A DNA stretch of 64,000 nucleotides. Source: an uncultured Candidatus Binatia bacterium (GTDB taxonomy: Bacteria; Desulfobacterota; Binatia; UBA9968; JAJDTQ01). The notes beneath the pieces are model-generated. The model made no database searches. It saw only the letters and a program-made list of their open reading frames with translations, and was not told where the DNA came from. The stretch lies in the NCBI GenBank assembly GCA_965219905.1, contig CBDCOS010000008.1, positions 640,183-704,182 of the forward strand, written 5' to 3'. Both the position numbers and the translations under genes were made by a program. This document shows, in pieces, positions 3,650 to 64,000 of this stretch (within the stretch, counting starts at the first letter, position 1; each line of letters starts with the position of its first letter).

Positions 3650-4074
3650 GTCAGCTTCCGGCCCAGCACCTTCTCGGCCATCTCCTGAGCCAGCGCTTCG
3701 GCGTTGGCCGAGGCCACTCGGCGCGCCGCCTCCAGCTCGCTCCGGACCTCTTCCCGTATCTCCTGAATCTTCTGGGTGGCGGCGTCGCGGCCCTGGGAGA
3801 GGATGAGGTTGCGGGCCTTGAGCGCCTCTTCCCGGATTTCGCTCTTGATCGCCTCGCCCTCGGCCCGGGCAGTGGCGATGGCGGCGTTGTATTGTGCCTG
3901 CAACTCCTGCCCTTCTTCCGTCAGGGAACGGGCCTCGGCGTGGGAGCCCTCGGTCCTGCGCTCCCGTTCCGCCATCAGACGCCCCACGGGCCCGAACAGC
4001 ACCCGCCGGAGAATGCTCCAGAGGATCAGGAACAGGACGATTTGGACCACCAGGGAATAATCTATGCTGATCAT
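3646..4074 (-). CDS. ATP synthase Fo subunit b' (second b-type subunit)
   Basis: 142 aa with one N-terminal TM helix and a charged helical stalk, paralogous to the adjacent b subunit. This b/b' arrangement is as in alphaproteobacteria and cyanobacteria. Confidence 0.75.
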   Translation of the reverse strand: MISIDYSLVVQIVLFLILWSILRRVLFGPVGRLMAERERRTEGSHAEARSLTEEGQELQAQYNAAIATARAEGEAIKSEIREEALKARNLILSQGRDAATQKIQEIREEVRSELEAARRVASANAEALAQEMAEKVLGRKLT

Positions 4075-4369
4075 GCTACGCGTTCGGTGTTGATGACGCC
4101 GGACTCGGAGAGAGCCCCGGTCATGGAAGATTCGGAGATGGCGTGAACCGAGATGCCGTCAGGTCGTTCTATAAACTTCGTCCTTCCCCTTGTTGGCTTC
4201 ATGACGTCAACCGCAGGAACGGCGTGACGTTCCCAATCGGGAAAGCCTCGATAGCCTGCCCAGTAGCTTGTTTTTACGAAGGCGCGGCGCATGTCGCGTC
4301 GCGCCGGATGAGCCGCGGTCGCAGTCTGCGGAAAGGCACGCCTCTAACTGTCAACCAAGGTCAGGCTAT

Positions 4370-4398
4370 AGCATTCGCGCCCTTGCTTGTCAAAGCGA
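4370..4398 (-). promoter_or_regulatory. Candidate sigma70 promoter for the atp operon (-35 TTGACA, 17-bp spacer, -10 TATAGC on the minus strand)
   Basis: Minus strand reads TTGACAagcaagggcgcgaatgcTATAGC (plus-strand coordinates 4398..4370). It is in the parB-atpF' intergenic region, upstream of the atpF' start at 4074. Confidence 0.3.
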
Positions 4399-4431
4399 GT
4401 GCGGAGGCGAGGCGGAAGCCGGCGGCCGCCG

Positions 4432-5295
4432 CTACACGGTGCCCATCATCATGCTCGTTATCCGCTCCAGGTCTTCCTGCGAATAGTACTCGATCTCCAG
4501 CTTGCCCTTGTCGTCGCGGGCCCGATGCGTGAGCCGGACCCGGGTGCCGAGGCGGCGCTGCAACGTTTCGACCAGGTGGGAAAGGTCCGGATCCAGGCGG
4601 TCCTCGGTCCTGGTCCGCCTGGGGGCGTTCAGCCGCTTCACCAGCGCCTCGGTATCCCGGGTGGAGAGGTCCTTCGCCATGACCTCACGCGCGGCGGCGG
4701 CCGTCATCGAACGGTCCTTGAGGCCCAACAGGGCCCGTGCCTGGCCGGCGGGCAACTCGCCACGGGAGACATGTTCCTTGATCGGGTCGGGCAGCGACAA
4801 CAGCCGCAGGGCATTGGCGACCGCGGAACGGCTTCTACCGACCCTTTCGGCCACCTGTTCCTGGGTCAGGTTGAACTGTTCCTGCAGCTCCGCGAAAGCG
4901 GCAGCCTCTTCGATGGGGTTCAGGTCTTCGCGCTGCAGGTTCTCGATCAAGGCCAGCAGAAGCGAGTTCGGGTCGGCGGTTTCGTGAACGATTATAGGGA
5001 CTTCCGAGAGTCCCAACCGCCTCGCCGCGCGCAGGCGCCGCTCGCCCGCGATGAGCTCGTAGCCCCCGGCCGTGGAACGCACGACCAGTGGCTGCAGCAT
5101 GCCGCTGGCCTCGATGGAGCCGGCCAGCTCGTTGATCTTCTCGTCGTCGAAGACCCGCCGGGGCTGGTTCGGATTGGGTGCGATCAACAAAGGATCGACC
5201 ACCGTGGGAGACGCCGCCGAAGGAGCATCCTCCACCACGGGTTCGCTTCCGGGCAGCAGGGCATCGAGACCCCGTCCAAGTCTATTCTTCTGCAT
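4432..5295 (-). CDS. parB: Chromosome partitioning protein ParB (Spo0J)
   Basis: 287 aa. MQKNRLGRGLDALL start, ParB box GERRLRAARRLG, and an HTH region. Confidence 0.9.
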   Translation of the reverse strand: MQKNRLGRGLDALLPGSEPVVEDAPSAASPTVVDPLLIAPNPNQPRRVFDDEKINELAGSIEASGMLQPLVVRSTAGGYELIAGERRLRAARRLGLSEVPIIVHETADPNSLLLALIENLQREDLNPIEEAAAFAELQEQFNLTQEQVAERVGRSRSAVANALRLLSLPDPIKEHVSRGELPAGQARALLGLKDRSMTAAAAREVMAKDLSTRDTEALVKRLNAPRRTRTEDRLDPDLSHLVETLQRRLGTRVRLTHRARDDKGKLEIEYYSQEDLERITSMMMGTV

Positions 5296-31163: not shown

Positions 31164-31307
31164 GACAACCACGAGGACACATTGCCCTCACCGTTGGTAC
31201 GAAATGGCGACAGCCCCCACGCGGTCATTCTCCCACTCTCCGTCATGCTCGCGAAACAGTCTGTGGCAACACCCCGCTCACACAGAACATGGCACAGCCA
31301 CCCCGAA

Positions 31308-31590
31308 CCGTCATTCCCGCAGCTTTTCCGTCATTCCCGCGGAAGCGGGAATCCAGGGGCGGAGAGGGGCCAAACGGGCGTATTCCCCGCCTCACCCCGC
31401 CTGGATTCCCGCTTTCGCGGGAATGACGGAGGGGAGCGGAGGATGACGGCTCGGGGCGTTAGCGACACTTCGTATCCGAGTGGAGTCTTGACACAGCTTC
31501 TTCGCGGGAATGACGGCAAGAGCCGTCGATGCTATCTCCTATCCGAGCGCAGTCTTGGTACAGCCTGGGAAGCGGGAATCCTGGGACGCG
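31308..31590. repeat. Cluster of the palindromic repeat family: a partial unit plus one complete ~100-bp palindromic element (31330-31429), followed by further half-units
   Basis: ccgtcattcccgcggaagcgggaatccaggggcgg ... ccgcctggattcccgctttcgcgggaatgacgg. The arms are reverse complements and each arm has its own TTCCCGCG/CGCGGGAA hairpin. Confidence 0.8.
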
Positions 31591-32640: not shown

Positions 32641-32712
32641 CCGTCATTCCCGCGGCTTTTCCGTCATTCCGGCAGCTTTTCCGTCATTCCCGCGGAAGCG
32701 GGAATCCAGGGG
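32641..32712. repeat. Palindromic repeat family: three tandem partial units (ccgtcattcccgcggcttttcc x3), the last complete through gaagcgggaatccagggg
   Basis: Direct inspection. Confidence 0.8.
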
Positions 32713-32731
32713 AAGGGAGGGAGGTAGTTTC

Positions 32732-49638: not shown

Positions 49639-52600
49639 ATGAGCACCAACGACGCTGGAGCCGGGGCTGCCGAAAGAGGACCGATCGCCTGGTTCGCCCG
49701 CAATCCGGTCGCCGCCAACCTGCTGCTGCTGTTCCTGATCATCGGCGGCATCATCGCCGGACGGCATCTCGCCGTCCAGCTCTATCCCTACTTCGATCTC
49801 CGGGCGATTACCGTGACCGTGCCCGCGCCGGGTTCGTCGGCCAAGGAGGTGGAGGAAGACATAAACCGCCGCATCGAGGAGGCCATCGTCGGGCTGAGAG
49901 GGGTGGAAAGGGTCGTGGGTACGGCCACCCAGGGGCGCGGCCGGCTCCGGGTCGAGCTGGCAACCTTTGCCGATCCCGACACCGTCCTGAACGATGTCCA
50001 GAACGCCGTGGACGGCATCGAGAACTTCCCGCCGCTGAACGCCGAAAGACCGGAGGTCGAGCTCCACCGAATCGCCATCGAGGTCCTGACGCTGGCGGTG
50101 TCGTCTTCCCGCGCCTCGGAGAACGAGTTGCGCCTCGCCGCCGAGAACGTGCGCGACGAGCTGCTGGCGCTGCCGGCGGTTTCACAGGTGACGCTGCTGG
50201 GCACCCGCGACCGGGAGATCACCATCGAGCTGAGCGAGGAAGAGCTGCGGCGGCACAATCTCTCCATTGCCCAGATCTCCCGCATCGTGCGACGGGCCTC
50301 GCTCAACCTCACTTTCGGTGAGCTGCGAACCGAGGGCGGCGGCGTCATCCTGCACACCGTCACCAAGCGGCGCACCGGCGACGAGTTCAGGGACATCCCC
50401 CTGATCACGCGCCTCAGCGGCGCCATCGTCACCCTCGGCGACGTCGCCACCATCCGCGACGGGTTCGTCGACGAGGACATCGTCTCCGAGGTCAACGGCC
50501 GGTCCACCGTGTTCGTCCGGGTCAACGCCGTGGAACAGGAGTCGGTGGTCGAGATCGGCGAAGAGATCAGGAGGTGGCTCGCCGGCCGCAAGGCTCCCGG
50601 GAACGTCACGGTCAGCATCTGGAACGACCGGGCGGCCCCCGCCCTGGACCGGCTGCAGGAGATCATCCGCAACGGCATCCTCGGCGCGTTGCTGGTTTTC
50701 CTGACCCTGGTCCTGGTGTTCGACCTGCGCGTCGCCACCTGGATCACCATAGGCATCCCCTTGTCCTTCATCGGCTCGCTGATCTTCTTCGGCGCCGCCG
50801 ACCTGACCCTGAACATCGGCACGATCTTCGCCTTCTTCCTGCTTATCGGCATCGTCGTGGACGACTCGGTGGTGGTCGGAGAGAGCATCGCGGCCGAACG
50901 CGAGAGCGGGAAGAGCGCGGCGGACGCGGCCATCTCGGGCGCCAGGGCGATGGTGGGTCCGATAACGGTGGGGGCGGCCACCACCCTGCTGGCCTTCGTG
51001 CCGCTTCTCTTCGTCACCTCGGGCGCCTACCAGCTCACCACCGTCTTTCCCTACGTGGCGCTCTTCGTCCTCCTGGTCTCGCTTGTCGAGTCCTTCTTCG
51101 TCCTGCCCGCGCACCTGTCCCACGACCGCCCGTGGAGCCTGCCGCCGTTGAGCAACATCCAAGGCCGCGTGGACGGACTGATCGACCGGACCCGGGACTA
51201 CGTCGTGGCCCCGTCGGTGGCGCGGGCCGTGCAACATCCCTGGCTCACCCTGGCGATCGGAGCGGCCGTCGTGCTCATCGGGGTGCTGCTCCTGCGGTCC
51301 GACAACGTCCGGGTGGTCATCATCGACCAGGACGCGCTCGCCTCCGACAGCATTCAGGCGGACCTGCATCTGCCCCCGGGGACGCCGTTCGAACAGACTC
51401 TCACCGCGGCCGGGCGTTTCGCGGACGCCGCCCGCTCCATCAACGACCAGCTCGATGGAACGTCGGTGAAAACCATCGCTATCATCGCCGGTAATCAGTC
51501 AGCCGTCCGGACGACCGACCTCCGGGCCAACCGCAGCAACGTGGCCTCGGTGCGGATTCATCTCAACCCGCGCCCGGTGCGCACCGCATCGTCCCGGGAC
51601 ATCGAGCGGGTCTGGCGCCGGAACGTCGGCGAGACGTCGGAACTGGAGAAAGTCGAATTCCATGGCGCGCGGGTAAAAGCCAAGCCGCCTGTTTCGTATG
51701 CGCTGAAGCACTCCGACGCGGCCGTGCTGAAAAACGCCGCCACGGAGCTGAAAGCCTCCCTGGGGACCGTGCCGGGGGTCTTCGGCATCTCCGACAGCCT
51801 GTCCGCCGGCAAGCGGCACTTCGAGATCCAGCTCACGCGGGCCGGAAAGGCGGCGGGATTGACGCCGGCGGGCATCGGCGCCCAGTTGCGCGCCAGCTTC
51901 CACGGCGTGGAAGTGCAGCGGATCCAGCGCGGGCGGGAGGAAGTCAAGGTCGTGGTCCGGTACCCGGCCGAGCGGCGGCAAAGCCTGGGAGAGCTGTCCA
52001 GCGAACGGATCCGCCGGCCCACGGGCAAGAACGGGCGACGGGGCCGGGACCGTGGCGCGCCCGGCGGCGGTGAGGTGCCGCTGTCCACGGTGGCGAGGCT
52101 CACCGAGAAACGCGAGTTGACCACGCTGACGCGTATCGACGGCAAGCAGGCCGCGTTCGTCGAAGCGCGTACCGACGCCGTCTTGACGACCCCCCGCCAG
52201 GCCAGGCGGGAGGTCGGGGAAAGGATCATCCCCGGCCTGCTCGCCAAGTACCCCCGCCTCAAGATCGAACCCGACGGGGCCGCCCGGGACGAGAAGGAGA
52301 TGTTGGGCACGCTGGGGCTGCTGGTCCCCATCGTGCTGCTGGCAATGTACGCGCTGATGGCCGCGTTCCTGCGCAGCTACTGGAAGCCCCTGGTGGCGGT
52401 GGTGGGGATCCCCATCTCCTTCGCCGGAGCGGTGCTGGCCCACTGGATACTCGGGTGGGACTTCGCGGCCATGTCGCTGTTCGGGATCGTCGCGGTGGGC
52501 GGGATCATCGTGAACGACGCGCTGGTGCTGCTGGACCGTTACAACGGGCTGCGCAAGGCAAACGACATGATGCCGGCCATCGCGGCGGCGTCCGCGGCGA

Positions 52601-52803
52601 CCCGCCACCGCTTCCGAGCGGTGTTGCTGACCAGCCTGACCACGGTGGTGGGGTTGTCACCGCTGCTCTACGAACGCAGCGACGAGCTGATCTTCCTGGT
52701 GCCTTTCGTGGTCAGCATGCTCGGCGGCCTCGTGTTGTCGACGATATTCATCCTGTTCCTCCTGCCGGCCCTGGTGATGATCGTTGACGGCCGCTACGAA
52801 TAG
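49639..52803 (+). CDS. Efflux RND transporter permease (AcrB/AcrD/AcrF family)
   Basis: 1054 aa with 12 TM helices in 2x(1+5) arrangement and two large periplasmic loops. Confidence 0.9.
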   Translation: MSTNDAGAGAAERGPIAWFARNPVAANLLLLFLIIGGIIAGRHLAVQLYPYFDLRAITVTVPAPGSSAKEVEEDINRRIEEAIVGLRGVERVVGTATQGRGRLRVELATFADPDTVLNDVQNAVDGIENFPPLNAERPEVELHRIAIEVLTLAVSSSRASENELRLAAENVRDELLALPAVSQVTLLGTRDREITIELSEEELRRHNLSIAQISRIVRRASLNLTFGELRTEGGGVILHTVTKRRTGDEFRDIPLITRLSGAIVTLGDVATIRDGFVDEDIVSEVNGRSTVFVRVNAVEQESVVEIGEEIRRWLAGRKAPGNVTVSIWNDRAAPALDRLQEIIRNGILGALLVFLTLVLVFDLRVATWITIGIPLSFIGSLIFFGAADLTLNIGTIFAFFLLIGIVVDDSVVVGESIAAERESGKSAADAAISGARAMVGPITVGAATTLLAFVPLLFVTSGAYQLTTVFPYVALFVLLVSLVESFFVLPAHLSHDRPWSLPPLSNIQGRVDGLIDRTRDYVVAPSVARAVQHPWLTLAIGAAVVLIGVLLLRSDNVRVVIIDQDALASDSIQADLHLPPGTPFEQTLTAAGRFADAARSINDQLDGTSVKTIAIIAGNQSAVRTTDLRANRSNVASVRIHLNPRPVRTASSRDIERVWRRNVGETSELEKVEFHGARVKAKPPVSYALKHSDAAVLKNAATELKASLGTVPGVFGISDSLSAGKRHFEIQLTRAGKAAGLTPAGIGAQLRASFHGVEVQRIQRGREEVKVVVRYPAERRQSLGELSSERIRRPTGKNGRRGRDRGAPGGGEVPLSTVARLTEKRELTTLTRIDGKQAAFVEARTDAVLTTPRQARREVGERIIPGLLAKYPRLKIEPDGAARDEKEMLGTLGLLVPIVLLAMYALMAAFLRSYWKPLVAVVGIPISFAGAVLAHWILGWDFAAMSLFGIVAVGGIIVNDALVLLDRYNGLRKANDMMPAIAAASAATRHRFRAVLLTSLTTVVGLSPLLYERSDELIFLVPFVVSMLGGLVLSTIFILFLLPALVMIVDGRYE

Positions 52804-52830
52804 CTCGATCCTTCGGGTAAGCTTCCCGTC

Positions 52831-53739
52831 ATGCCTTCCCTGACGCCGGTCCGGCTCATCCAGTTCCGCGCCGCCTACAACCTGCCGGTGCATGCGGCCA
52901 TGGAGAACGGCGCGTTCGCCGCCGCGGGCCTGGCGGTGGAGGCCGAGTACACGCCGGGCTCGGCGTTTCTCATGGAGGCGGTGCGCACCGGGCGCTGCAC
53001 CATCGGCCACGCGGCCGTGGACGACGTGGTCTGCGACGTGGAGAACCAGCCCGGCTCGGACCTGTTCGCGTTCATGGGGCTCCACAGCGGCCTGTTGAGC
53101 CTCGTCGGCGCGCCGGGGTGTCCCACCATGGAGTCGTTGCGCGGCAAGCCGCTGGCGGTGGACGCACGCGACAGCGGCTTCGTCTTCATCCTCGAGAAAG
53201 CCCTGCGCGACCACGGCTTCGGCCCCGACGACTGCGATCTCGTGGAGGTGGGCGGCTGGGAGAGCCGCTACCAGACGCTCATCGAGGGCAAGCTCTTCGC
53301 CACGCTGCTCACCCCGCCCTTTGTCGGAGCCGCCCTGGAACGGGGCTGCCACGTCATCGCCCGCGGCGAGGAGATGGCGCCGGTCTACCAGGCGACCGTG
53401 GGCTTGGCCGGGCGCTCCTGGGCGGAAGCGAACCGGACGCACCTGGTCGACTACATCCGCTGCTACGTGGCCGCCACCGAGTGGTGCTTCGCACCCGAAA
53501 ACCGCCCCCACTGCCTCGACATCCTGGAGCGGCACAACGGCCTCACCGGCTCCGCCGCCGAAGAGACCCTGGACGCGCTGCTGCACCCCGAACACGGCCT
53601 CTACCCCAGGGCCGCCCTGAACGTCCCCGGCATCGCCGGCGCCCTCGATCTCCGGGCCGGCATGAGCTACATCGCCTCCCCCCCGCCCCCGCCGGAGAAG
53701 TATATCGACGATTCCTACTACAACGCCGCCGTCCGCTGA
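52831..53739 (+). CDS. NMT1/THI5-like (SsuA/TauA/ThiY-type) substrate-binding-fold protein, no obvious signal peptide
   Basis: 302 aa with type II periplasmic-binding-protein-fold blocks. The N-terminus MPSLTPVRLIQFRAAYNLPVHAAMENG lacks a hydrophobic signal segment. Confidence 0.6.
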   Translation: MPSLTPVRLIQFRAAYNLPVHAAMENGAFAAAGLAVEAEYTPGSAFLMEAVRTGRCTIGHAAVDDVVCDVENQPGSDLFAFMGLHSGLLSLVGAPGCPTMESLRGKPLAVDARDSGFVFILEKALRDHGFGPDDCDLVEVGGWESRYQTLIEGKLFATLLTPPFVGAALERGCHVIARGEEMAPVYQATVGLAGRSWAEANRTHLVDYIRCYVAATEWCFAPENRPHCLDILERHNGLTGSAAEETLDALLHPEHGLYPRAALNVPGIAGALDLRAGMSYIASPPPPPEKYIDDSYYNAAVR

Positions 53740-53777
53740 CCCGACCCCCAAAGCCCGCCCTCATCCTCTCCCCGCAC

Positions 53778-53843
53778 CCGTCATTCCCGCCTCCCCTCCC
53801 GTCATTCCCGCCTCCCTCCCGTCATTCCCGCGGAAGCGGGAAT
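53778..53843. repeat. Palindromic repeat family: two degenerate units plus the left 25 bp of a full element cut by the IS3 insertion
   Basis: ccgtcattcccgcctcccctcccgtcattcccgcctccctcccgtcattcccgcggaagcgggaat | IS. Confidence 0.8.
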
Positions 53844-53882
53844 TGAACCGCTCCGGGTTTACCGGAGACGGAATAGAGTGAG

Positions 53883-55108
<1,226 letters not shown>

Positions 55109-55158
55109 GACCCCATCCTCTCAAAGAGTTGGGTCTCCGGTAAACCCGGGGCGGTTCA

Positions 55159-55280
55159 GAATCCAGAGGCGGTGGTGTGGCGGCTCAATTACCCCGGCCC
55201 CACTCAGCCTGGATTCCCGCTTGCGCGGGAATGACGGAGGATGCGCGATCAGGGGCGGCAATCCAGGGGCGGCGGAGGGG
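55159..55280. repeat. Palindromic repeat family: right ~79 bp of the element split by the IS3 (55159-55237), plus an extra partial unit
   Basis: gaatccagaggcgg...cctggattcccgcttgcgcgggaatgacgg then ...caggggcggcaatccaggggcgg. Confidence 0.8.
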
Positions 55281-55385
55281 CAAAACGCGGGTCCGTACAA
55301 AATGGGCGACATTTCACGGTGTTAGCCGGTGCCCACTTCGCGTCGGCGCGACAGAGTCAGCCTTGCGGCGTCCTTTGACTTTCTC

Positions 55386-55582
55386 GTGTTGACATGTATG
55401 GTGATTCTTGAAGCACCGTTCGGATGCACGTCACCAATGTCGGTACAGGCCGGGAAGCGCACCGCATACATCAAGGTAACCCGTGTTGACATGTATGGTG
55501 ATTTTTTGAAGCCCCGTTCAGGAGGAGGGCACCAATGTCGGCACCGGCCGGGAAGCGCACCGCATACGTCAAGGTAACGCTC
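55386..55582 (+). repeat. Tandem direct duplication (97 bp + ~100 bp, ~85% identical) of the integrase promoter / 5' coding region
   Basis: Copy 1 is gtgttgacatgtatggtgattcttgaagcaccgttcggatgcacgtcaccaatgtcggtacaggccgggaagcgcaccgcatacatcaaggtaacccg. Copy 2 is gtgttgacatgtatggtgattttttgaagccccgttcaggaggagggcaccaATGtcggcaccggccgggaagcgcaccgcatacgtcaaggtaacgctc. Only copy 2 keeps the AGGAGG RBS. Confidence 0.8.
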
Positions 55583-56917
55583 AACAAGCGCAACGTCGAG
55601 TCCCTCAAATCCGCGGAGAAACCCTTCATCGCGTGGGACGACAAATTGACCGGTTTCGGCCTTCGAGTCCAGCCTACCGGCGTTCGCTCCTATATCGTCA
55701 ACTACCGTGTCGGCGCCGGCGGGCGAAAGGCCGCCAACCGGCGCCTGGTCATAGGACGCCACGGACGTGTGACCGCCGACCAGGCGCGGCGCCTCGCCCA
55801 GGAGACGCTGGGGCGCGTTGCCGCCGGTGACGATCCCGCAACGGAGCGTAGCCATAGCAGAACTGTTCCCACCTTGCGCGAGGCCTTCGAGGAGTACCTC
55901 GCCGCCGGGCCGAAGCGCAAGGAGAGTACTGTCGCCGTTTACCGCCGCATCGTTTACTACAATCTTGGCGCGTGGGTCGACCGCACGCTGGACAGCATTG
56001 ACCGGCGCGACGTGGAGAAGTGCTTCCTCCGGCTCACGAGCGAATCCGGATGGGTGCAGGCCAACAGCGCCATGAAGATGCTGCGTGTGCTCTACCGCCG
56101 CCATTGCATCGACTTCCAGGGGCTGCACAACCCGGTCGACCAGTGGCGCGCGGCCGGCGGGCGGCCCCACCGCCCGCGGCGGCGCACGATCCAGCCCCCG
56201 GCCGAGGTGCTGCCGCGCTGGTACCGGGGCATCGAGACCGCGGTGCCCAACCCGGTCGCACGCGATGCCTTCCGTTTCGGCCTTTACACCGGCATGCGGC
56301 GAGCCGAGGTCTTCGGCCTGGAATGGGCCCGCATCGACCTGGACGGGATGACTTTCCGGGTCGAGGACACCAAGACCGGCGAGCCGTTGGAACTCCCCGT
56401 CACCCGCCAACTCACCGCCATCCTTCAGCACCGTTTCGCCGAGCGCGAGCGTTTTCCCGAGCATAGCCGGAGTTGGGTGTTCCCGTCCGAAACTGCCGGG
56501 TCGGGACACATCAACAGCGGAACGCAGTACCTGAATGCGCGGATCAGCGAGGCGGGCGGGGCGAAGTTCTGGTTCCATGCGTTGCGCAACTGCTTCATCA
56601 CCGTCGCCAACCGCGACCTGATGCTGCCGGTGAGCCTGACCAAGCGGCTGGTCAACCATGCGAGGTCTCATGACGTGACCGAAGGCTACGCCGCCGACTG
56701 GACGACGGAGCAGCTTCGCGACGCCGCCCAACGCATCGCCGATCGTATCGACGAGTTGATTCGCGCGGGCGTCCCGACGCGGGAGGCTGGTTCGCGGGCT
56801 GAGAACGTCGTACCCGGGTATGGCGACCTTGCCGTCGGAAGCACCGCAGGACTGGCCCAAGTTTCAGTGCGCGAACCCTCTCGCTCATCGCCCGGTTCCC
56901 CGACCGGCCCCCTCTAG
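55535..56917 (+). CDS. int: Tyrosine-type site-specific recombinase / phage P4-like integrase (N-terminal DUF4102 arm-binding domain)
   Basis: 460 aa. The N-terminus LTGFGLRVQPTGVRSYIVNYRVGAGGRKAANRRLVIGRHGRVTADQARRLAQE is the P4-type integrase arm-binding domain. The C-terminal catalytic region has FHALRNCFIT (active-site R) and LVNHARSHDVTEGY (H and catalytic Y). Confidence 0.85.
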   Translation: MSAPAGKRTAYVKVTLNKRNVESLKSAEKPFIAWDDKLTGFGLRVQPTGVRSYIVNYRVGAGGRKAANRRLVIGRHGRVTADQARRLAQETLGRVAAGDDPATERSHSRTVPTLREAFEEYLAAGPKRKESTVAVYRRIVYYNLGAWVDRTLDSIDRRDVEKCFLRLTSESGWVQANSAMKMLRVLYRRHCIDFQGLHNPVDQWRAAGGRPHRPRRRTIQPPAEVLPRWYRGIETAVPNPVARDAFRFGLYTGMRRAEVFGLEWARIDLDGMTFRVEDTKTGEPLELPVTRQLTAILQHRFAERERFPEHSRSWVFPSETAGSGHINSGTQYLNARISEAGGAKFWFHALRNCFITVANRDLMLPVSLTKRLVNHARSHDVTEGYAADWTTEQLRDAAQRIADRIDELIRAGVPTREAGSRAENVVPGYGDLAVGSTAGLAQVSVREPSRSSPGSPTGPL

Positions 56918-57046
56918 AAGTCTTCGATCGCCCAGGGCGGCCTGATCGTCGCGCCCCTCAAATTTCTCTAACCACACGCATCCCTCCAAAGGCACCGAGG
57001 TTCGCGGCTCCGCGCCGTGAAGCCACGCGTCTGCGCCCTGTTTGGT

Positions 57047-57149
57047 GTTGACAAGGTGTTTACTTATCTTTAATTTTATATTGGAATGCTTATCTAAGAA
57101 GGTAATTTCATTAAGAAAATTTATGAAAAGTATATTGTTTTAACATAAA
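57047..57149 (+). promoter_or_regulatory. Sharply AT-rich (~25% GC) ~100-bp island upstream of lipoprotein gene 1, containing TTGACA and several TATA-like hexamers: likely promoter / nucleoid-protein-binding region
   Basis: ttgacaaggtgtttacttatctttaattttatattggaatgcttatctaagaaggtaatttcattaagaaaatttatgaaaagtatattgttttaacataaa, which contrasts with ~68% GC on both sides. Confidence 0.4.
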
Positions 57150-57338
57150 CATAATGTTTTGGTTAAGGAGCCGTCACGGCACTGGAAACGGAAATGAAAA
57201 GATCAACAAGGAGGTCGCGATGCCAGTGTTCATAGCGAATAGACAGTGGGTGGCCGTTCTCTTGGCGGTGTTCATGGCGGTCGCTTTGAGCGCTTGCGGT
57301 GGCGGCGGCAGCACTAGTGCCCCTCAGATGCCGGAGCC
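57150..57338 (+). repeat. Inverted repeat arm A: 189 bp, 100% identical to 63565-63753 (reverse complement); covers a CATAAT -10-like hexamer, the AAGGAGG RBS, the ATG and the first 40 codons (signal peptide + lipobox) of the lipoprotein
   Basis: Base-by-base comparison of 57150-57338 with the reverse complement of 63565-63753. Both flanks diverge immediately outside. Confidence 0.85.
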
Positions 57339-58938
57339 GGGGCCGATGCCTGACCCGCAAATGGCCTGCGAGGATGCGGGCGGCCGGTATAACGCCGACG
57401 GAACGTGCACCTCGGCTGAGGATCTCGCGGCGGAACAACTGGCGATGGAGCGCGGGGCTATCAGCACGGCCATCACGGCGGCAAGCACCGCGGTCAACGC
57501 CGTGAACAACGACTCCACCGATGCCCAGGTGACCGCCGCCGATACGGCGATCACGAACGCCATAAACGCAATCGCGGCCGCGGCCAATGTTCCGGCCGAA
57601 GAGAAAGCCGCGAACACCGAGACGGTCAATGCGCTCGCAACCCAACTTTCCGGTGCCAAGATGGCCCGCATGACCGCCATGGATGACGCCCAGAAGGCCG
57701 CGGATATGGCCATGGCCGTCACAGCGGCGAAGCTGTATGCGGGGATCGATCCGCAGAATGGCGCCACCGCAACTGTGGCCGCCGGTACTGCTCTGCTCGC
57801 AGGGGAGCGGGCCGCCGCCTACAACAACGCCGACCAGCCCAGCGCCGGCACCAGTGCCGACACACGCATCATGGTGGGCATCGAGACCGCTGCCGTCGTC
57901 GCCCTGTCGGAAGACAAAAAGACGATGGTCGCCGACAACCACGGCTGGGCAGGCAAGCGGTACGCCGACCCCGCCGGCGGTGACAGCTATGAGGCTGTCG
58001 TATACTCGAATGTCGGCGAGCCGACGATGGGCAAGAAGTTCGGCGGCGCGGCAGCAAACGACGAGTTCGAGTACGCATTGACCAACGGAGCGCTCCCGTC
58101 CAACACAGCTTGGGTGGCCTCGAGAGTAGCTCTCACGGGCGTCACCCGGACTGCCGGCACGGAAACGTTCAAGTTGCCGACCCCAAATCCGAGCGGCGCG
58201 GTGAACATCCTCGTCCCCGGCAGCTATCACGGCGTGTCCGGCACCTACAGTTGCGTGCCTAGCGCTCCCGCCAACGGTTGTTCGGCTGCGGTAGCCGCAA
58301 AAGGCTTCACGCTTGTGACCACCGGCGGCGACGCCTGGACCTTCACGCCCACCGACGCAAACGCCAGAGTCACAGACACCCCGGACGCCGCTTACGCCTC
58401 GTACGGCTGGTGGATCCACAAGACCGAGAACGGCAAGACCTTCATCGCGAGCGCATTCACGGATGAAAAGGGTACGGTTGATGCTGCCTCAGGTCTCGAC
58501 ACCTTGCAGGGAACGGCGACGTACATGGGCGGCGCGGCCGGCAAGTACGCTCTCAGCAGTTCGACAGGCGGCACCAACGACGCCGGTCACTTCACCGCGA
58601 AGGCGACGCTTGAGGCCGATTTCAGTGACAACTCGGTCACGGGCACCATCGACAACTTCATGGGTGCGGATGGTGAGACGCGAGACTGGTCAGTCGAGTT
58701 GAAGAAAAACACGATCGGAGCTACTGGGCCGATCAGTAGCGACGGTACCGCCGCCGCCGATGGAGCGAAAACGGTCTGGACCATCGGCGGAACGGCCGCT
58801 GGTGCTGCCGGCGGGTGGACCGGGGCTCTCAGGGACAACGGTACCGACGGGGTTCCGAAGGTCGCGACCGGAACGTTCTACTCGGAGTTCGAAACAGCAG
58901 GCAAAATGGTTGGCGCGTTCGGTGTGAATAAGCAGTAG
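57220..58938 (+). CDS. Surface lipoprotein with a TbpB/fHbp-like C-terminal beta-barrel domain (paralog 1)
   Basis: Strong RBS aaggaggtcgcgATG. Signal MPVFIANRQWVAVLLAVFMAVALSAC with lipobox LSAC plus a GGGGS linker. The mid region is Ala-rich and helical. The C-terminal ~150 aa (GTATYMGGAAGKY...GHFTAKATLEADFSDNSVTGTIDNFMG...TFYSEFETAGKMVGAFGVNKQ*) resembles the 8-strand barrel of neisserial fHbp/TbpB-type SLAM-dependent lipoproteins. Confidence 0.65.
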   Translation: MPVFIANRQWVAVLLAVFMAVALSACGGGGSTSAPQMPEPGPMPDPQMACEDAGGRYNADGTCTSAEDLAAEQLAMERGAISTAITAASTAVNAVNNDSTDAQVTAADTAITNAINAIAAAANVPAEEKAANTETVNALATQLSGAKMARMTAMDDAQKAADMAMAVTAAKLYAGIDPQNGATATVAAGTALLAGERAAAYNNADQPSAGTSADTRIMVGIETAAVVALSEDKKTMVADNHGWAGKRYADPAGGDSYEAVVYSNVGEPTMGKKFGGAAANDEFEYALTNGALPSNTAWVASRVALTGVTRTAGTETFKLPTPNPSGAVNILVPGSYHGVSGTYSCVPSAPANGCSAAVAAKGFTLVTTGGDAWTFTPTDANARVTDTPDAAYASYGWWIHKTENGKTFIASAFTDEKGTVDAASGLDTLQGTATYMGGAAGKYALSSSTGGTNDAGHFTAKATLEADFSDNSVTGTIDNFMGADGETRDWSVELKKNTIGATGPISSDGTAAADGAKTVWTIGGTAAGAAGGWTGALRDNGTDGVPKVATGTFYSEFETAGKMVGAFGVNKQ

Positions 58939-58963
58939 TTGCTGATCATCCTTCCTGCTCAGG

Positions 58964-59002
58964 TGAGGGCGGCGGCTTTGGTCGCCGCCCTTTCTCTTTC
59001 CT
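58964..59002 (+). terminator. Intrinsic terminator of lipoprotein gene 1 (gggcggcggctttggtcgccgccc stem-loop followed by a T-rich tract tttctctttcc)
   Basis: Direct inspection. A homologous copy follows lipoprotein gene 2. Confidence 0.55.
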
Positions 59003-59120
59003 CCAATGGCCGCCGTCGCTTGAACCTCGCCTGATCCCGTTTAGCGTGGCTGCAACCCTCGGAGTCCTCTCGCTCTGAGCGTCCGGCACCGAACCCATCG
59101 GCCCCGGGTTCCGCGAACCC

Positions 59121-59410
59121 TGTCGTGTCATATATGGTCCGCTCCGCTTGGCAAGGATCTGTTTGGGTGAGGAGGCAGGTCAGTTGCAGTCATATATCCG
59201 GCCTCTCGATGGGAGCGTCTCCGCTTCCGGGCCCTGATGGATTCCGCACACGCCCGCCTCAACAACTGAGCGGTCTCGAAGACCGTGACATTGACCAGGC
59301 TCTGGGCGTGCCGGATCGACCTGTCTGCCATCATTCCACTGCACCTTGCGCAACTTGGAGGTTTCCGAGTTCTTCCCATCTTGCTGGGCGTTTCTGGGTT
59401 GACACTGACA
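59121..59410 (+). repeat. 290-bp element X copy A with ~10-bp terminal inverted repeats (TGTCrrTGTC ... GACACTGACA); ~95% identical to copy B in inverted orientation; MITE-like or IS-terminus-derived
   Basis: Left end tgtcgtgtcatatatggtcc, right end ctgggttgacactgaca. The reverse complement of 61039-61313 aligns over ~275 bp with a few mismatches. Confidence 0.5.
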
Positions 59411-59615
59411 CTCCGCAACAACCGAATCCACTGTTGTCAATGGCAACCGAAAACTGCTCATTTTTGGCAATCAAAAACTGCACATTCCGAGAAGGGCGCC
59501 GGTACGGGTCTGACGCTCTTCGGTTGGTTTCGGTGGGGCGAGAGGGGTTGGACGGAGGAAGCGTAGCGACCGGAGTCCAATCCCTCTCGCGTGCCGGATC
59601 GGCAGGCCCAGCCGT

Positions 59616-60413
59616 TCACAGCGCGACCCCCTGGCCGGACTGCTCGGACTCGGGTCGCATCAGGTTCCGATGCTCTCGCATCCGGTAGCTGTTGCCGCGG
59701 ATGTTGACGATGTGGCAGTGGTGCAGCAGCCGATCGATGAGGGCCGCGGCCATCACCTCGTCGCCGAGGACACTGCCCCATTCCTCGAAGCCCTTGTTGG
59801 AGGTGAGCACGGTGGAGGCGCGCTCGTGGCGGGCGTTGATGAGCTGGAAGAAGAGCACGGCGCCGTCCTGGTTCACCGGCAGGTAGCCGATCTCGTCCAC
59901 CACGAGCAAAGCGGGATGAGTGAGGACCCGCAGCCGGCGGGACAACTCGCCGGCTGCCTTGGCCTCCATCAGGGACTCGATCAGTCCCGCGAGGGTTCCG
60001 TAGTAGACGCGGCGGCCGGCCTGGGCGGCGGTGATGGCGAGGCTTATGGCGAGATGGGTCTTCCCGACACCTGGCGGGCCGAGCAGGATGACGTTCTCGC
60101 GTCGGTCCACGAACCCGAGTTCGTGCAGGCTCTCGATCTGCTCACGCTTGATGCTGGGCTGGAAGGCGAAGTCGAACTGGCCCAGGGTCTTCACGGCCGG
60201 CAGCCGCGACGAGCGCATGGCGGCCTGCAGGCGGCGGTTGTTGCGAAGCCCTATCTGGGCGTCCAGCAACTGCTCGATGGCCTCGGCCGCGGACACCGCG
60301 CCGCCGTCGGCCTGGGCCAGGATGCCGTCCACGGCTTCCAGAGCGCCGGGCATCTTGAGGTCGGCGAGCATCTCCCGCAGCCGGTCGCGCCGGGTGCCTG
60401 TCTCGGCCCTCAT
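59616..60413 (-). CDS. istB: IS21-family helper ATPase IstB
   Basis: 266 aa. Walker A NVILLGPPGVGKTHLAISLA and Walker B LLVVDEIGYLP. The start overlaps the istA stop. Confidence 0.85.
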   Translation of the reverse strand: MRAETGTRRDRLREMLADLKMPGALEAVDGILAQADGGAVSAAEAIEQLLDAQIGLRNNRRLQAAMRSSRLPAVKTLGQFDFAFQPSIKREQIESLHELGFVDRRENVILLGPPGVGKTHLAISLAITAAQAGRRVYYGTLAGLIESLMEAKAAGELSRRLRVLTHPALLVVDEIGYLPVNQDGAVLFFQLINARHERASTVLTSNKGFEEWGSVLGDEVMAAALIDRLLHHCHIVNIRGNSYRMREHRNLMRPESEQSGQGVAL

Positions 60414-61038
60414 GACACGGCCTCCGCATAGACGCTGAGCGGGCGGCGCTCGACGTCGACGGTGACGGGCAGGGGGCGCCGAGCCGGTTGCGGTGCCCTG
60501 CGGGCGCCGAGACGCCGGTAGGGAGCGCTCGCCAGCGGCAGCAGCGCCTGGCGCTCGTCGCGTTCGAAGCGATCCACCGGGCGTTCTCCGGTGGTGCCGT
60601 GCCGGCGCACGTTGGCGGTCCCCTTGAGCCACGACAGTGCCTGCTCGTTGAGATCCTCGTCGCTGGCGAACTCCCGGCCGTAGAAGAAGCTGTCGCGGAG
60701 GTAGCGGATCGGCCGCTCCACCTTGCCCTTGGTCTGGGCTCGGTAGGGCCGGCAGGCCCGCGGCCGGAACCCCCAGTGGGCGGCGAAGCGCAGGAAGTCC
60801 GCGTTCAGCACCAGCTGGCCCCCGCCTACGCGGCCGTCCGACAGCACCACCGAACGCATCTGGTCGAACAGCAACTCCTGCGGCACCCCGCCGAACCACC
60901 CGAAGGCGCTCTCCAGCCCCTCGATCAGCACCTCCATCGTCTGTCGCCGGTAGAAGCGCAGCCACAACAGCCGCGAGTGGCTCAGGACCGTCACCAGCGC
61001 ATGCCGCCGGCCCCAGGGCAGCGTGAACGAGAATGTAC
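60410..61038 (-). pseudogene. istA: IS21-family transposase IstA, N-terminally truncated (DDE core and C-terminal part only)
   Basis: Reads ...RRHALVTVLSHSRLLWLRFYRRQTMEVLIEGLESAFGWFGGVPQELLFDQMRSVV.... The first 16 codons of the track ORF are encoded by element X, so they are not IstA. Confidence 0.7.
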
Positions 61039-61313
61039 GAAACGCCCAGCAAGATGGGAAGAACTCGGAAACCTCCAAGTTGCGCAAGGTGAAGTGGAAT
61101 GATGGCAGACAGGTCGATCCGGAACGCCCAGAGCCTGGTCAATGTCACGGTCTTCGAGACCGCTCGGTTGTCGAGGCCGGCGTGTGAGAAATCCATCAGG
61201 GCCCGGAAGCGGAGACGCTCCCATCGAGGGGCCGGATATATGACTGCAACTGACCTGCCTCCTCACCCAAACAGATCCTTGCCAAGCGGAGCGGACCATA
61301 TACGACACTGACA
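61039..61313 (-). repeat. Element X copy B (inverted relative to copy A); right end truncated by ~16 bp at the junction with istA
   Basis: The plus strand ends ...ggaccatatacgacactgaca, which as a reverse complement is tgtcagtgtcgtatatggtcc, matching the copy A left end. Confidence 0.5.
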
Positions 61314-61454
61314 AGCGTCCTGCGCGCAGCTTGCTCCTGGGGTTCGCTGAAACGGGCGCCAATGGGATCGGCGGTGGAGGTCCAGAGCAGAAGGACCGCG
61401 AGGGTTACGCCCGCGATGAACTGGATGAGGCGGCAGTTCAAGCGGTGTGTAATT

Positions 61455-61495
61455 GGAGGAAAGGGAAAGGGCGGCGACCGAAGCCGCCGCCCTCA
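61455..61495 (-). terminator. Intrinsic terminator of lipoprotein gene 2 (gggcggcggcttcggtcgccgccc stem-loop + T-rich tract on the minus strand), homologous to 58964-59002
   Basis: Plus strand reads ggaggaaagggaaagggcggcgaccgaagccgccgccctc; its reverse complement matches the gene-1 terminator apart from 2-3 substitutions. Confidence 0.55.
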
Positions 61496-61520
61496 AGCGC
61501 CCGGGAAGGATGATAAGAGA

Positions 61521-63683
61521 CTACTGCTTGTCCGCGCCGAACGCGCCGACCATCCGACCGACGGAGTCGTACTCAGAATAGAACGTGCCGGTTGCAGTGG
61601 TAGGGACGTCGCTGCCGTCTCCGGCCGGGGGGTCTCCGAGCATTTCATCGTACATCTGACCGGACCAAGTGCCAGACCTCGGTGCCGAGGTTCCGTCGAT
61701 CGACCACGTCGTGCCCATCGTCTCGTTAGCGGCAGTGTTGGTATCATCAGTTGTAGGAGTGGCAAACGCACCAGTAGTGCCCCAAGGAGCACGGTGCAGT
61801 GACACGCTCCATGGCACCGACTCACCGTTGGCCATGAAGTTGTTGAGCGTGCCGGTGACACCTGCGGTGGCGCCATTCCCGAACTTGGCCGTCAACTCAG
61901 CATCCGCCGTGAAGTGGCCGCCGTCGCTGGTGCCGTCGAGCACTTTATTCTTCGAGTAATCCAGCGCGAACTTGCCGGCGGCGTGGCCGGTGTAGGTGGC
62001 GCTGCCTTCGAACGTGGCGGCGGCGGGATCAGTAGTCAGAGCGGTAGTACCATCGCCCGCTACCGTGCCAACCACACCCCTGAACACGCTGGCTGCCGTC
62101 GGCATGCCGTCCTTGTCCTTGCTCACCCACCAGCCATAATACAGGTAGTTGGCATCGGGCTGATGCGCCATCGCGCTCTCACCGGCGTCGGGCTTGAAGT
62201 GCCAGGTTCCGCCCAATGAAGTCGGGCTGCCCTTGCCGTCGTTGCTCGAGGAGCAAGCCCCCGTGCAACGGTATATGCCCGGCGCACCGTCGTAGGTGCC
62301 TCGGGTGGTGAACGCAGAATCATCAACGTCATTATACGAATGATTCTGGATTCCGGGGTGCAGGAAGTCGTCTGCCATAACCTTCGAGAGGGCGGCGCCT
62401 GTGTCGACAGTGCCGCCGTTGACCACGGTCACATAACCCTTGATCGCGGTGTACGCTGGCCCGGTACCGGCGTTTGCGTCTGCGAGGACATTCCCCGCAT
62501 CGGCATATGAGACCGTCTTTCCGGGACCCTTGTTGTTGTACACCACGGCCGCGTTCATCACCTTCGATTCGGCGTTCGTGTGGGCGTAGTTCGTGCCCGT
62601 CCAACTGCCCAACGAGCCGGCGGGATCACCCGCCTTGAGTGTCACCGAGGCTGGGTTGGTGGCGCCGGGCAGCGCTCCCGCGCCTAGAGCGGCATCAATC
62701 ACGAGGCCGGACGACGACAGGGATACCGGCGTAGTAGCCGAATCGATGTTGTCTAGCGCGGTCGTGCCAGTTGTGGGAGTCCCCGCCAGCGCCGCGAACA
62801 ACTCCTTGCCCGTCTTCGCCATGGCCACCTTCGCGGCCTTTTCGGCCTCGTCCTCAGCCTCCTCGAAGGCCATTTGCGCCGTGCTGATCGGCGCCGCCGC
62901 ATTGTTCGCCTCTCTCTGATACGGAGCCTTTTCGTCGTCGGTCAGGTCCGCGCCGCTCGTGATCGCGTTGTTCAGGGCGGTGAGAGCGTTGTTGGCGGCG
63001 TCGAGTTGCGCCTGCGTGGGGGTCGAGCCGGAAAGCGCCGCCAGTGCGGTCTGAAGCATCGTGGAAGCACTATCCAACTCCGCCATCTGGTTCGTCCGGC
63101 GCGTCGCGGTGTCGATCCCGCCCTGCGCCATGTCCACGGCCTCCACAGCGTTGTCCAGCATCATCTGGTACATCGACGTGTCGTCGACGTCGACCGCATC
63201 GGCGATCGCCTGCCGAAGCCCCACGATGGCGGCCCGGGCAGCGTCAACCAAAGCCTGGGTCGACAGGTCGGACGTGTCGATCATGCCAGCGGCGTCCATC
63301 AGGGCCTGTTTCTGCTCGTCCGCGCGGGCCGCCATGTTGATCGCCATGATCCGGGCATCGACCGCTGCCTGGAGCGTTTCGCCCTGTGCGGCGGTAACGT
63401 CGGCCTTCACCGCGTCGTAGGCCGCCTGGGCGTCTTCCGCCGTGACCGCCGCCGCGATGCTCGCGAGCGTCATGTTAACCGTGTTCTCTTGGGGCGTCAG
63501 GCATGCACCATCCACCCAATGATTGCCCGCGTCCGTGCACATCTCCTCCGCCGTCGGCGGCATCGGCTCCGGCATCTGGGGGGCACTAGTGCTGCCGCCG
63601 CCACCGCAAGCGCTCAAAGCGACCGCCATGAACACCGCCAAGAGAACGGCCACCCACTGTCTATTCGCTATGAACACTGGCAT
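61521..63683 (-). CDS. Surface lipoprotein with a TbpB/fHbp-like C-terminal beta-barrel domain (paralog 2, 720 aa, larger variable mid-region)
   Basis: The first 40 codons are identical at the DNA level to paralog 1. The C-terminus ...GSATYTGHAAGKFALDYSKNK...GHFTADAELTAKFGNGATAGVTGTLNNFMANG...TGTFYSEYDSVGRMVGAFGADKQ* is ~50% identical to the paralog 1 barrel. The central region is diverged, Ala/Thr/Asp-rich and helical. Confidence 0.65.
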   Translation of the reverse strand: MPVFIANRQWVAVLLAVFMAVALSACGGGGSTSAPQMPEPMPPTAEEMCTDAGNHWVDGACLTPQENTVNMTLASIAAAVTAEDAQAAYDAVKADVTAAQGETLQAAVDARIMAINMAARADEQKQALMDAAGMIDTSDLSTQALVDAARAAIVGLRQAIADAVDVDDTSMYQMMLDNAVEAVDMAQGGIDTATRRTNQMAELDSASTMLQTALAALSGSTPTQAQLDAANNALTALNNAITSGADLTDDEKAPYQREANNAAAPISTAQMAFEEAEDEAEKAAKVAMAKTGKELFAALAGTPTTGTTALDNIDSATTPVSLSSSGLVIDAALGAGALPGATNPASVTLKAGDPAGSLGSWTGTNYAHTNAESKVMNAAVVYNNKGPGKTVSYADAGNVLADANAGTGPAYTAIKGYVTVVNGGTVDTGAALSKVMADDFLHPGIQNHSYNDVDDSAFTTRGTYDGAPGIYRCTGACSSSNDGKGSPTSLGGTWHFKPDAGESAMAHQPDANYLYYGWWVSKDKDGMPTAASVFRGVVGTVAGDGTTALTTDPAAATFEGSATYTGHAAGKFALDYSKNKVLDGTSDGGHFTADAELTAKFGNGATAGVTGTLNNFMANGESVPWSVSLHRAPWGTTGAFATPTTDDTNTAANETMGTTWSIDGTSAPRSGTWSGQMYDEMLGDPPAGDGSDVPTTATGTFYSEYDSVGRMVGAFGADKQ

Positions 63684-63753
63684 CGCGACCTCCTTGTTGA
63701 TCTTTTCATTTCCGTTTCCAGTGCCGTGACGGCTCCTTAACCAAAACATTATG
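63565..63753 (-). repeat. Inverted repeat arm B: 189 bp, 100% identical (reverse complement) to 57150-57338
   Basis: See arm A. Upstream of this copy (63754-64000) the sequence is GC-rich and coding-like, not AT-rich as upstream of copy A. Confidence 0.85.
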
Positions 63754-64000
63754 CTATGGCTGCTCTGGAGGAGGCGGCGGTGCGCCCGTCGTCAGCTGCA
63801 TCACGGTGCACGGTGGCGATTGCATTACGCCGGAGGCATTCGCGGAGTCGGCGGTGGAGCGCGCGCACGCGTACCGGTCCATTGATGGTTTCCGGAACCA
63901 GTGGGGGTTGGAGCACATCAAGGCGGACGTGGCCTATCGCCATCTCGAGCTGCTCAAGGGCCCGGACGCCCAGCCCGGCGCCGGAGTGACCCTCGGCTTC

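Follow-up and report, generated by a model that had tools for sequence, protein, structure and literature searches.

Right-end remnants of a probable RNA-guided IS1111-group element beside an IS21 remnant in a Candidatus Binatia contig, and the apparent targeting of IS21 right ends by its relatives

Features of the locus

We analysed a stretch of 64,000 nucleotides from an uncultured Candidatus Binatia bacterium (contig CBDCOS010000008.1, positions 640,183 to 704,182; hereafter the window), focusing on positions 59121–61313, where the remnant of an IS21-family insertion sequence (IS) lies between two inverted copies, A and B, of a repeat that we call X. Two unrelated IS families are nested in this region. 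X is very probably, for the most part, the leftover right-end module of an IS of the IS1111 group (IS110 family), designated Z, including its bridge-RNA gene. What we observed are the homology of X to such right ends, a conserved RNA structure, covariation between the guides of this RNA and flanking DNA, a full-length relative residing in an IS21 right end, and the IS21 ends themselves. The features are given below in window coordinates.

59121–59130, plus strand: outer tip of copy A, TGTC-GTGT plus the core CA; probably the outer 9–10 nt of an IS21-type terminal repeat, as it matches guide 1 and the homologous spot in loci L123, L127, L128 and L021 is the IS21 right-end tip, (T/C)GTCAATGG-CA
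59131–59389, minus strand: putative Z fragment of copy A, with the right-end extension TATAT, the subterminal repeat, the bridge-RNA gene and a 3′ untranslated stretch
59178–59321, minus strand: bridge (seek) RNA core of copy A, with seven helices and two internal loops, one predicted to bind the target and one the donor
59260–59272, minus strand: guide 2, RNA CGCUCAGUUGUUG (plus strand CAACAACTGAGCG), specifying the flank beside the left end
59284–59296, minus strand: guide 1, RNA GGUCAAUGUCACG, specifying the flank beside the right end
59390–59410, minus strand: 21-nt IS21-type tip, TGTCAGTGTCAACCCAGAAAC, inverted relative to 59121–59130 and not homologous to the relatives of Z
59411–59434, plus strand: spacer, CTCCGCAA followed by CA-ACCGAATCCACTGT
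59435–59488, minus strand: intact right terminal repeat (IRR) of the IS21 remnant, with the tip TGTCAATGGCAACCGAAAACTGCTCA followed by a second copy of the binding-site repeat
59616–60413, minus strand: intact istB, 265 aa (PF01695, E=6e-81), 97% identical over its full length to IstB of locus L122
60410–61029, minus strand: istA fragment, residues 135–340 of 340, with an rve domain (PF00665), 96% identical to residues 135–340 of protein P0001
61030–61038, no strand assigned: filler of 9 nt at the junction (minus strand GTACATTCT), not assignable to X and not clearly to istA
61039–61302, plus strand: putative Z fragment of copy B, whose first 5 nt (61039–61043) are from the 21-nt IS21-type tip
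61112–61255, plus strand: bridge RNA core of copy B, with helix positions 61123/61178 and 61187 broken
61303–61313, minus strand: outer tip of copy B, with the mutated core CG plus ACACTGACA; the minus strand reads TGTCAGTGT-CG

The IS21 remnant and the inverted repeat around it

IS21-family elements encode IstA, a DDE transposase, and IstB, an AAA+ helper; their termini begin with TGT and carry repeated subterminal motifs, and they generate target-site duplications of 4–8 bp. The central element at our locus shares with this family the istA and istB genes, overlapping by the usual ATGA, a TGT... right end and repeated binding-site motifs. An earlier note on this DNA, made from the letters alone, had described a remnant with a truncated istA and an intact istB, and the two genes listed above bear this out. 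A search with the IstA fragment retrieved full-length IstA proteins of 333–340 aa that were at most 96% identical, with the best match encoded on L122; another IstA, P0002, is 94% identical to that of the window. L122 harbours an intact IS21 of 2.12 kb with the left end TGTAGCGGGCAACTGTAAAACTCCCATTAGTGGCAACCGAAAACTGCCCACA, the right end ...GAGCAGTTTTCGGTTGCCATTGACA (...GGTTGCCATTGACA) and the target duplication CATGCG. In this intact relative, both terminal repeats and a 6-bp target duplication, as in the family, are present. Window positions 59435–61029 and L122 positions 3404–5002 display 96.2% nucleotide identity over 1,599 nt.

The IRR at 59435 is collinear with the right end of L122, whose 6-bp duplication fixes the tip, and this tip lies 24 nt from X, outside of it. 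The left terminal repeat and 134 istA codons are missing from the window IS21 (523 bp in total), while the C-terminal 206 codons are kept. Because of this loss, the window IS21 is incapable of transposing by itself, and in these absences, as well as in X being no part of the IS21, it differs from the family. The earlier note had raised the possibility that X was the terminal sequence of the IS21-like element. In L122, L125 and L126, whose IS21 copies are intact or near-intact (IstA 86–96% identical), the left end reads TGTAGCGGGCAACTGTAAA... (TGTAGCGGGCAAC...) and the right end TGTCAATGGCAACCGAAAAC.... Since the left end of none of these three resembles X, and the right end is intact at 59435, X is not the normal terminus of the window IS21.

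By far the longest repeat in the 64-kb window is the inverted pair 59125–59394/61039–61308 (270 nt, 97% complementary). With the tips included, the shared unit comprises 59121–59394 and 61039–61313 (274/275 nt), with nine substitutions and one 1-nt indel. The two inverted copies of ~290 bp with terminal inverted repeats (TIRs) that the earlier note had described are thus present, with 270-nt arms and 10-nt tips, and their identity is indeed high, although the value is ~97% and not ~95%. Copy B is truncated where it meets istA, as had also been noticed, copy A extending 16 nt further at its inner end, to 59410. In X, the 10-nt TIR takes the form TGTC-GTGTC at the outer end of copy A and TGTCAGTGTC at that of copy B, and positions 59401–59410 read GACACTGACA. 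The outer tip TGTCAGTGTC is exact in copy B and one base short in copy A, and GACACTGACA is its inverse.

X is homologous to the right ends of IS1111-group elements

A sensitive blastn search against plasmids matched positions 12–134 of X to unannotated DNA on Agrobacterium and Microvirga plasmids (73–75% identical), ~130 bp downstream of IS110-family transposase genes. The family was collected from representative genomes with a degenerate pattern built from conserved blocks, which gave at least 118 loci. Among the matches listed, 84 loci had at least 900 bp of flank; an IS110-type transposase was present on the expected strand and side, ending 150–250 bp away, in 75 of these, and the other nine were transposase-less orphan loci resembling X. 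Full-length members, represented by 24 relatives and also by L123 and L071, are ~1.35 kb in length with an 11–13-nt subterminal inverted repeat near either end. In X, 259 of the 290 bp are homologous to the right ends of IS1111-group elements adjoining DEDD transposases; L123 and L124, too, carry such a transposase beside the module. The nearest relatives over 240–270 nt are L021 (86%), L123 (87%), L127 (86%) and L128 (88%). Homology to L127 and L128 spans the right terminus at 59131 to 59389–59393, and judging from these two loci, the stop codon of the Z transposase would be expected ~15 nt past the end of the copy A fragment. Of the subterminal inverted repeats (7–17 bp) expected close to either end of an IS1111-group element, the right-end copy, GGTCCGCTCCGC, is found at its conserved position, 59136–59147.

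Elements of this type rely on a DEDD recombinase that is programmed by a bridge/seek RNA, one loop of which pairs through two segments with the target halves and another with the ends of the element. IS1111-group elements have subterminal repeats and encode a bridge RNA in a long right end (PMC11208160; PMC11187229). Homology and a covariation-backed structure, described below, reveal the same trait here: a long non-coding right end, downstream of the transposase, that encodes a bridge/seek RNA. Three other searches with X were unproductive: Pfam found nothing in a 97-aa open reading frame (ORF) spanning X, a protein search with this ORF, aimed at X-like DNA via spurious gene calls, gave no candidate, and blastn with the inner 61 nt of X against plasmids returned noise only.

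Some of the relatives have features of their own. In L071 (1269–2882), an IS66-family element is inserted between the transposase stop codon and the RNA gene. In L021 (~1700–1959) and L123 (1196–1460), an additional segment of ~260 nt occupies the same interval; X, L127 and L128 have none. The closest full-length Z transposase is P0121 (93% to L021); like the IstA P0002, it is listed with a longest contig of 1,578,988 bp, so that a single contig may encode the two. ENA sample ERZ25068633 contains both L122, with its IS21, and L124, a relative of Z, and the relatives of IS21 and Z appear to co-occur in the same genomes.

The right end encodes a conserved RNA with two guides

For the RNA, 26 diverse homologues were aligned on the transposase-sense strand (minus in copy A, plus in copy B) and evaluated with RNAalifold and by counting pairs. 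The consensus fold contains 29 pairs in seven helices, with 94.7% of cells paired, compared with 27–46% when the partners were slid by 1–3 columns. Compensatory double changes were found in 14 pairs, and none of 500 column shuffles matched the observed values. Recurrent G-U pairs are compatible with the transposase-sense strand alone.

A small hairpin in the first internal loop separates two single-stranded segments, the guides. Guide 1 reverse-complements the DNA immediately outside the right end: the longest match lay at the same offset, covarying with the flank, in 49 of 77 loci, and matches of at least 8 nt were found in 28% of the loci, against 4% when the flanks were permuted among loci. 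In 19 of 24 full-length relatives, guide 2 matched the left-end junction, comprising the terminal 3 nt of the left end, the CA core and the adjoining flank. The second loop, which in X reads CCAUCAG/GGAUAUAUGAC, tracks the termini of the element itself. The guides in X are GGTCAATGT-CA-C and CAA-CA-ACYGAG, and those in L021, L123, L127 and L128 are GGTCAATGG... and CAA-CA-ACCGAG. Guide 2 differs between copies A and B at two positions, and either copy departs once from the L021 form.

In these respects the RNA resembles the IS621 bridge RNA and the IS1111 seekRNA (Durrant et al. 2024; Siddiquee et al. 2024): it is structured, has two internal loops, carries paired guides that read both target halves on opposite strands, and has a second loop matching the element ends. 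It differs from those systems in that its function is read from covariation alone, its genes in the window are orphaned and mutated, and it has no Rfam match (a search of 58900–61500 at E≤1 returned noise only and no matching family). A simple scan found no promoter-like site for the RNA. The covariation indicates that the RNA would obey the published bridge-RNA logic and function as a target guide.

The guides of the Z subfamily point to IS21 right ends

Jointly, the guides of the Z subfamily specify GTCAATGG/T-CA-ACCGA, and the two guide segments of the RNA of X spell GTCAATGT-CA / CA-ACCGAG; both can be recognised as the IS21 right-end tip, TGTCAATGGCAACCGAAAAC. Since the guides spell the tip of an IS21-type repeat, Z would enter IS21 right ends at a distance of 9 nt from the tip, its own right end facing that tip. 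L123 displays such an arrangement. It opens with 75 nt from a same-family IS21, namely the 3′ end as far as ...CAGTCTTCGGT-TG (...CGGT-TG); the left end of Z follows (ATGGAAT and the subterminal repeat), then a 345-aa DEDD transposase, the RNA and the right end ...GGAGCGGACCATATA, and after this, TG-CCATTGACA supplies the final 9 nt of the IS21 right end before unrelated DNA follows. The left flank, CA-ACCGAAG, is likewise part of that IS21 right end. In L021, L127 and L128, too, the right end adjoins (T/C)GTCAATGGCA. In all, five loci of the subfamily lie at an IS21-type tip, the specific target read by the guides.

The flank of X is TGTCAGTGT-CA, which in copy A appears as TGTC-GTGT-CA and in copy B has its core mutated to CG. 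We thus consider that the left "TIR" (TGTCAGTGTC) is probably the outer stub of an IS21-type terminal repeat split by Z and not an end of X, and that the right "TIR" is probably a separate 21-nt IS21-type tip joined to the 3′ untranslated region of Z. The idea that X ends in IS21-type termini is sound for both 10-nt tips, one being the flank of the Z target and the other the 21-nt tip, but does not hold for the body of X. An IS21 left end as the target of Z in copy B was ruled out, as the family left end TGTAGCGGGCA mismatches guide 1.

One IS1111-type lineage appears to home, under the direction of its bridge RNA, into the right terminal repeats of an IS21 family. REP (repetitive extragenic palindromic) sequences, attC sites and Tn21 ends are natural target classes already known, to which IS21 ends would add another. 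The guide/target pair GTCAATGG-CA-ACCGA is ready for testing an IS1111-group recombinase. It is the relatives that reveal this specificity; what the window itself contains are two decaying remnants, essentially ordinary dead mobile DNA. In the literature searched, whose coverage was partial with much of the older work and ISfinder outside it, there was no report of an IS1111-group element targeting IS21 ends.

The closest parallel is provided by IS4321 and IS5075, IS1111-group elements that insert into the 38-bp terminal repeats of the Tn21 family. As cited in PMC11208160 and PMC11187229, these are ISs with DEDD transposases and subterminal inverted repeats, and they insert site- and orientation-specifically a few bp inside the terminal repeat of another element, with no target duplication. 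L123 behaves equally toward an IS21 right end. The differences are that the target here is the right end of an IS21-family element rather than a Tn3/Tn21-family repeat, that transposase and RNA are of another lineage, with the nearest relatives in metagenome-assembled genomes labelled Deltaproteobacteria or Gammaproteobacteria, and that the window retains only the RNA and right-end module.

Other loci display further juxtapositions of the two families, which seem to nest reciprocally. In L127 (3340–3400; ENA ERZ25084348 contig_60), a complete IS21 right-end tip adjoins codon ~13 of an IS1111-type transposase, whose element in turn has its right end adjoining an IS21 tip; the layout is as in the window, with an IS21 end, a Z remnant and a second IS21 tip. 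L044 (~4950–4992, minus strand) carries a solitary IS21-type end, TGTCAATGGCAACTGAAAACTGCAC, ~85 bp past an IS1111-type left end, with no istAB nearby. In L015, L022, L030, L065, L069, L086 and L119, IS1111-type members occupy the middle of short palindromes such as GGTGCAAAATT-CA...CA-AGATTTATGCACC, which are REP-like targets. Their two flanks are mutually inverted and could be mistaken for TIRs of the element.

The inner tip, the spacer and a proposed history

No other non-self stretch of the window matches the IS21 right end as well as the 21-nt tip at the inner end of X (19/26), 14 of whose first 16 nt agree with that end. The homology to L127 and L128 stops at 59389–59393. Because the joint at ~59389/59390 falls at an internal position of an IS21-type repeat, it would represent a deletion or illegitimate junction rather than a transposition junction. 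In the spacer, CA-ACCGAATCCACTGT agrees with guide 2 of L021 at 10 of 11 nt, the match starting exactly at the CA core. It resembles the part of an IS21-type repeat that starts at nt 10, and may plausibly represent the second half of the original target of Z.

The following sequence of events is inferred, as are the sources of the 21-nt tip and the spacer and the way in which the duplication came about. Z would have inserted into an old IS21-type repeat, after which another IS21-type element would have landed 8 nt from the left terminus of Z. A deletion between the 21st nucleotide of that element and the 3′ untranslated region of Z may have followed, and the present IS21 would then have inserted 25 nt into the old repeat. 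What would remain of Z is its last ~260 bp (RNA gene, subterminal repeat and right terminus), joined to the 9–10-nt outer stub. Later, the unit consisting of the tip, the Z fragment and part of the 21-nt tip would have been copied in inverted orientation onto the truncated istA, giving the 274-nt inverted repeat. That IS21 copies land in Z is demonstrated by L127, with its IS21 tip at transposase codon ~13.

A number of points weigh against identifying X as a remnant of Z and against this history. A tblastn search with the L123 transposase found no DEDD (PF01548 + PF02371) transposase in the window, and with no transposase present, X is a fragment and not a member element of the IS1111 group. 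X has no left-end subterminal repeat, so that a complete Z at this locus is deduced rather than seen. Between the flank TGTCAGTGT and the canonical tip TGTCAATGG there are two mismatches, and between this flank and guide 1 there is one. The 21-nt tip, the 8-nt CTCCGCAA and the 9-nt filler at 61030–61038 each call for additional ad hoc events. That the ends of X form a perfect inverted repeat of 10 nt is improbable by chance and makes sense only with IS21-type tips at both, the backing for the second being its 19/26 identity alone. Finally, neither X nor the block 59121–61313 is surrounded by a target duplication, so no insertion can be dated.

Other constructions for the inner end and spacer were tried with little success. 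The last 50 bp of X cannot be a two-repeat IS21 end, as its inner ~29 bp are 3′ untranslated region of Z according to L127 and L128. CTCCGCAA as the left terminus of Z agrees neither with the ATTCCAT of L123 nor with the donor loop of the RNA. Inversion between the two IS21-type repeats by a bridge recombinase, reconstructed on paper, fails to give the observed order of segments. The 21-mer of the inner tip had one metagenome match (L121), in which similarity ends after 23 nt in unrelated intergenic DNA, about what is estimated by chance.

Origin of the second copy

Copy B has the same junction between Z and the 21-nt tip as copy A, and the final 16 nt of the inner end of copy A are missing from it. 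Since this abnormal junction and 5 nt beyond it are present in copy B, the copy would derive from an already decayed unit like copy A. The account to which we lean, at somewhat less than an even chance, is a non-transpositional inverted duplication of that unit by template switching, fold-back repair or illegitimate recombination. It agrees with the common internal deletion junction, with the junction at istA, which cuts both partners at non-terminal positions and includes the 9-nt filler, and with the locus having already been a large imperfect palindrome. A random template switch does not, however, explain why the outer boundary of copy B falls exactly at an IS21-type tip.

An alternative is that Z was inserted by RNA guidance on two independent occasions, once into either terminal repeat of a single older IS21-type element, and that gene conversion afterwards made the copies alike, a history that would place the present IS21 inside the older element. 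Although we regard it as unlikely, it has several points in its favour: the orientation rule of L123, L127 and L128 (right end toward the tip) predicts that both right ends face outward, as they do, the similarity of the copies ends precisely at IS21-type tips, and the spacer has an IS21-type repeat fragment beginning at the core. On the other hand, the same abnormal junction in both copies implies a single decayed unit unless conversion moved the junction, there is no target duplication around 59121/61313, and the older element has left no other trace.

Whichever way the second copy arose, both copies are most likely inert, because a recombinase and a left end are both absent from the window and the RNA gene of either copy is mutated. 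IS110-family RNA modules without a transposase are known from Pseudomonas putida, in MITEPpu9 and the stand-alone ssr9 copies of ISPpu9 (PMC12288879). MITEPpu9 differs in that it keeps both end-like boxes and forms circles (PMC12288879); X has no left-end box and is therefore a truncated remnant and not a mobilisable module. It is quite improbable that the orphan modules are alive, used in trans by a Z recombinase elsewhere or moved as a 290-bp unit by an IS21 transposase. If this were true, a transposon family other than its own would disseminate a programmable guide RNA, and the two 274-nt inverted copies might serve as a recombination switch at the centre of the surface-lipoprotein palindrome described below.

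Two further readings regard X as a unit moved by IS21 functions. We give very little credence to a hybrid non-autonomous cassette bounded by IS21-type tips, movable by the IS21 transposase with the bridge RNA as cargo. The perfect 10-nt inverted IS21-type tip at both ends of the 290-bp unit and the repeated mutual nesting of IS21 and Z (L123, L127) are what such a cassette would display, but a target duplication and dispersed copies are both lacking, IstA-site repeats are absent from the outer end, and copy B is cut at a non-terminal position. Least probable of all is X as the terminal sequence of an IS21-like element or as an IS21-derived miniature inverted-repeat transposable element (MITE) moved by IstA/IstB: both tips do read TGTCAGTGTC, an IS21-type terminus, and X does bracket the IS21 remnant in inverted orientation, but the left end of the relatives differs, the right end is intact at 59435, 259 of 290 bp are of IS1111 type, and the outer tip keeps 9–10 nt of the repeat without the repeated IstA-site motif. 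The MITE proposed in the earlier note is left with its TIRs. The target-site duplication that the note had asked about is absent, the flanks being GAACCC/CTCCGC for copy A and GAACCC/AAGCGT for the whole block; the 64-kb window holds two linked copies of X and no third; and one X-specific 21-mer had no exact match in 185,579 representative genomes. A short repeat with IS-like tips beside an IS is easily misfiled as a MITE or an IS end, and here such a repeat would be the remnant of a different, RNA-guided IS.

The lipoprotein palindrome and its surroundings

The nest lies at the centre of a larger palindrome, whose arms consist of lipoprotein gene 3′ ends, terminators and spacers. That this centre is decayed mobile DNA, as previously suggested, is supported by the IS21 remnant and the IS1111-type fragments. 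The arms are ~75–83% alike, reaching 59120 on side A and ending 26 nt before copy B on side B. Compared with the arms, X (~97%) would be much younger, or else has been kept alike by conversion. The further proposal that the palindrome arose by or was maintained through transposition found no backing, taking into account the difference between arms and X and the absence of target duplication, and our reading of X has no bearing on the origin of the palindrome.

The two convergent lipoprotein-like genes are at 57154–58938 (plus strand, 594 aa) and 61521–63749 (minus strand, 742 aa), with the lipobox ...LSACGG and no Pfam match for either. Their first ~196 nt are 98% identical (57150–57345 and 63558–63753), the last ~75 nt and terminators are ~79% identical, and the middles are unalignable. 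This mosaic hints at surface-protein paralogues whose 5′ ends have recombined or been converted.

A tyrosine integrase gene (Arm-DNA-bind_3 and Phage_integrase) is located at 55535–56917 on the plus strand. A tandem duplication of ~97 bp (55385–55480/55482–55578, 86–96% identical) precedes and overlaps its start. ARAGORN found no tRNA gene in 50000–64000. The lipoprotein/IS block may lie on an integrated island. The window also contains a REP-like dispersed repeat, CCGTCATTCCCGCGGAAGCGGGAATCCAGGGG, forming a small hairpin, in at least six copies (29825, 31308, 32641–32721, 45405 and 53799), some of them arranged in tandem or as inverted pairs (31261–31496).

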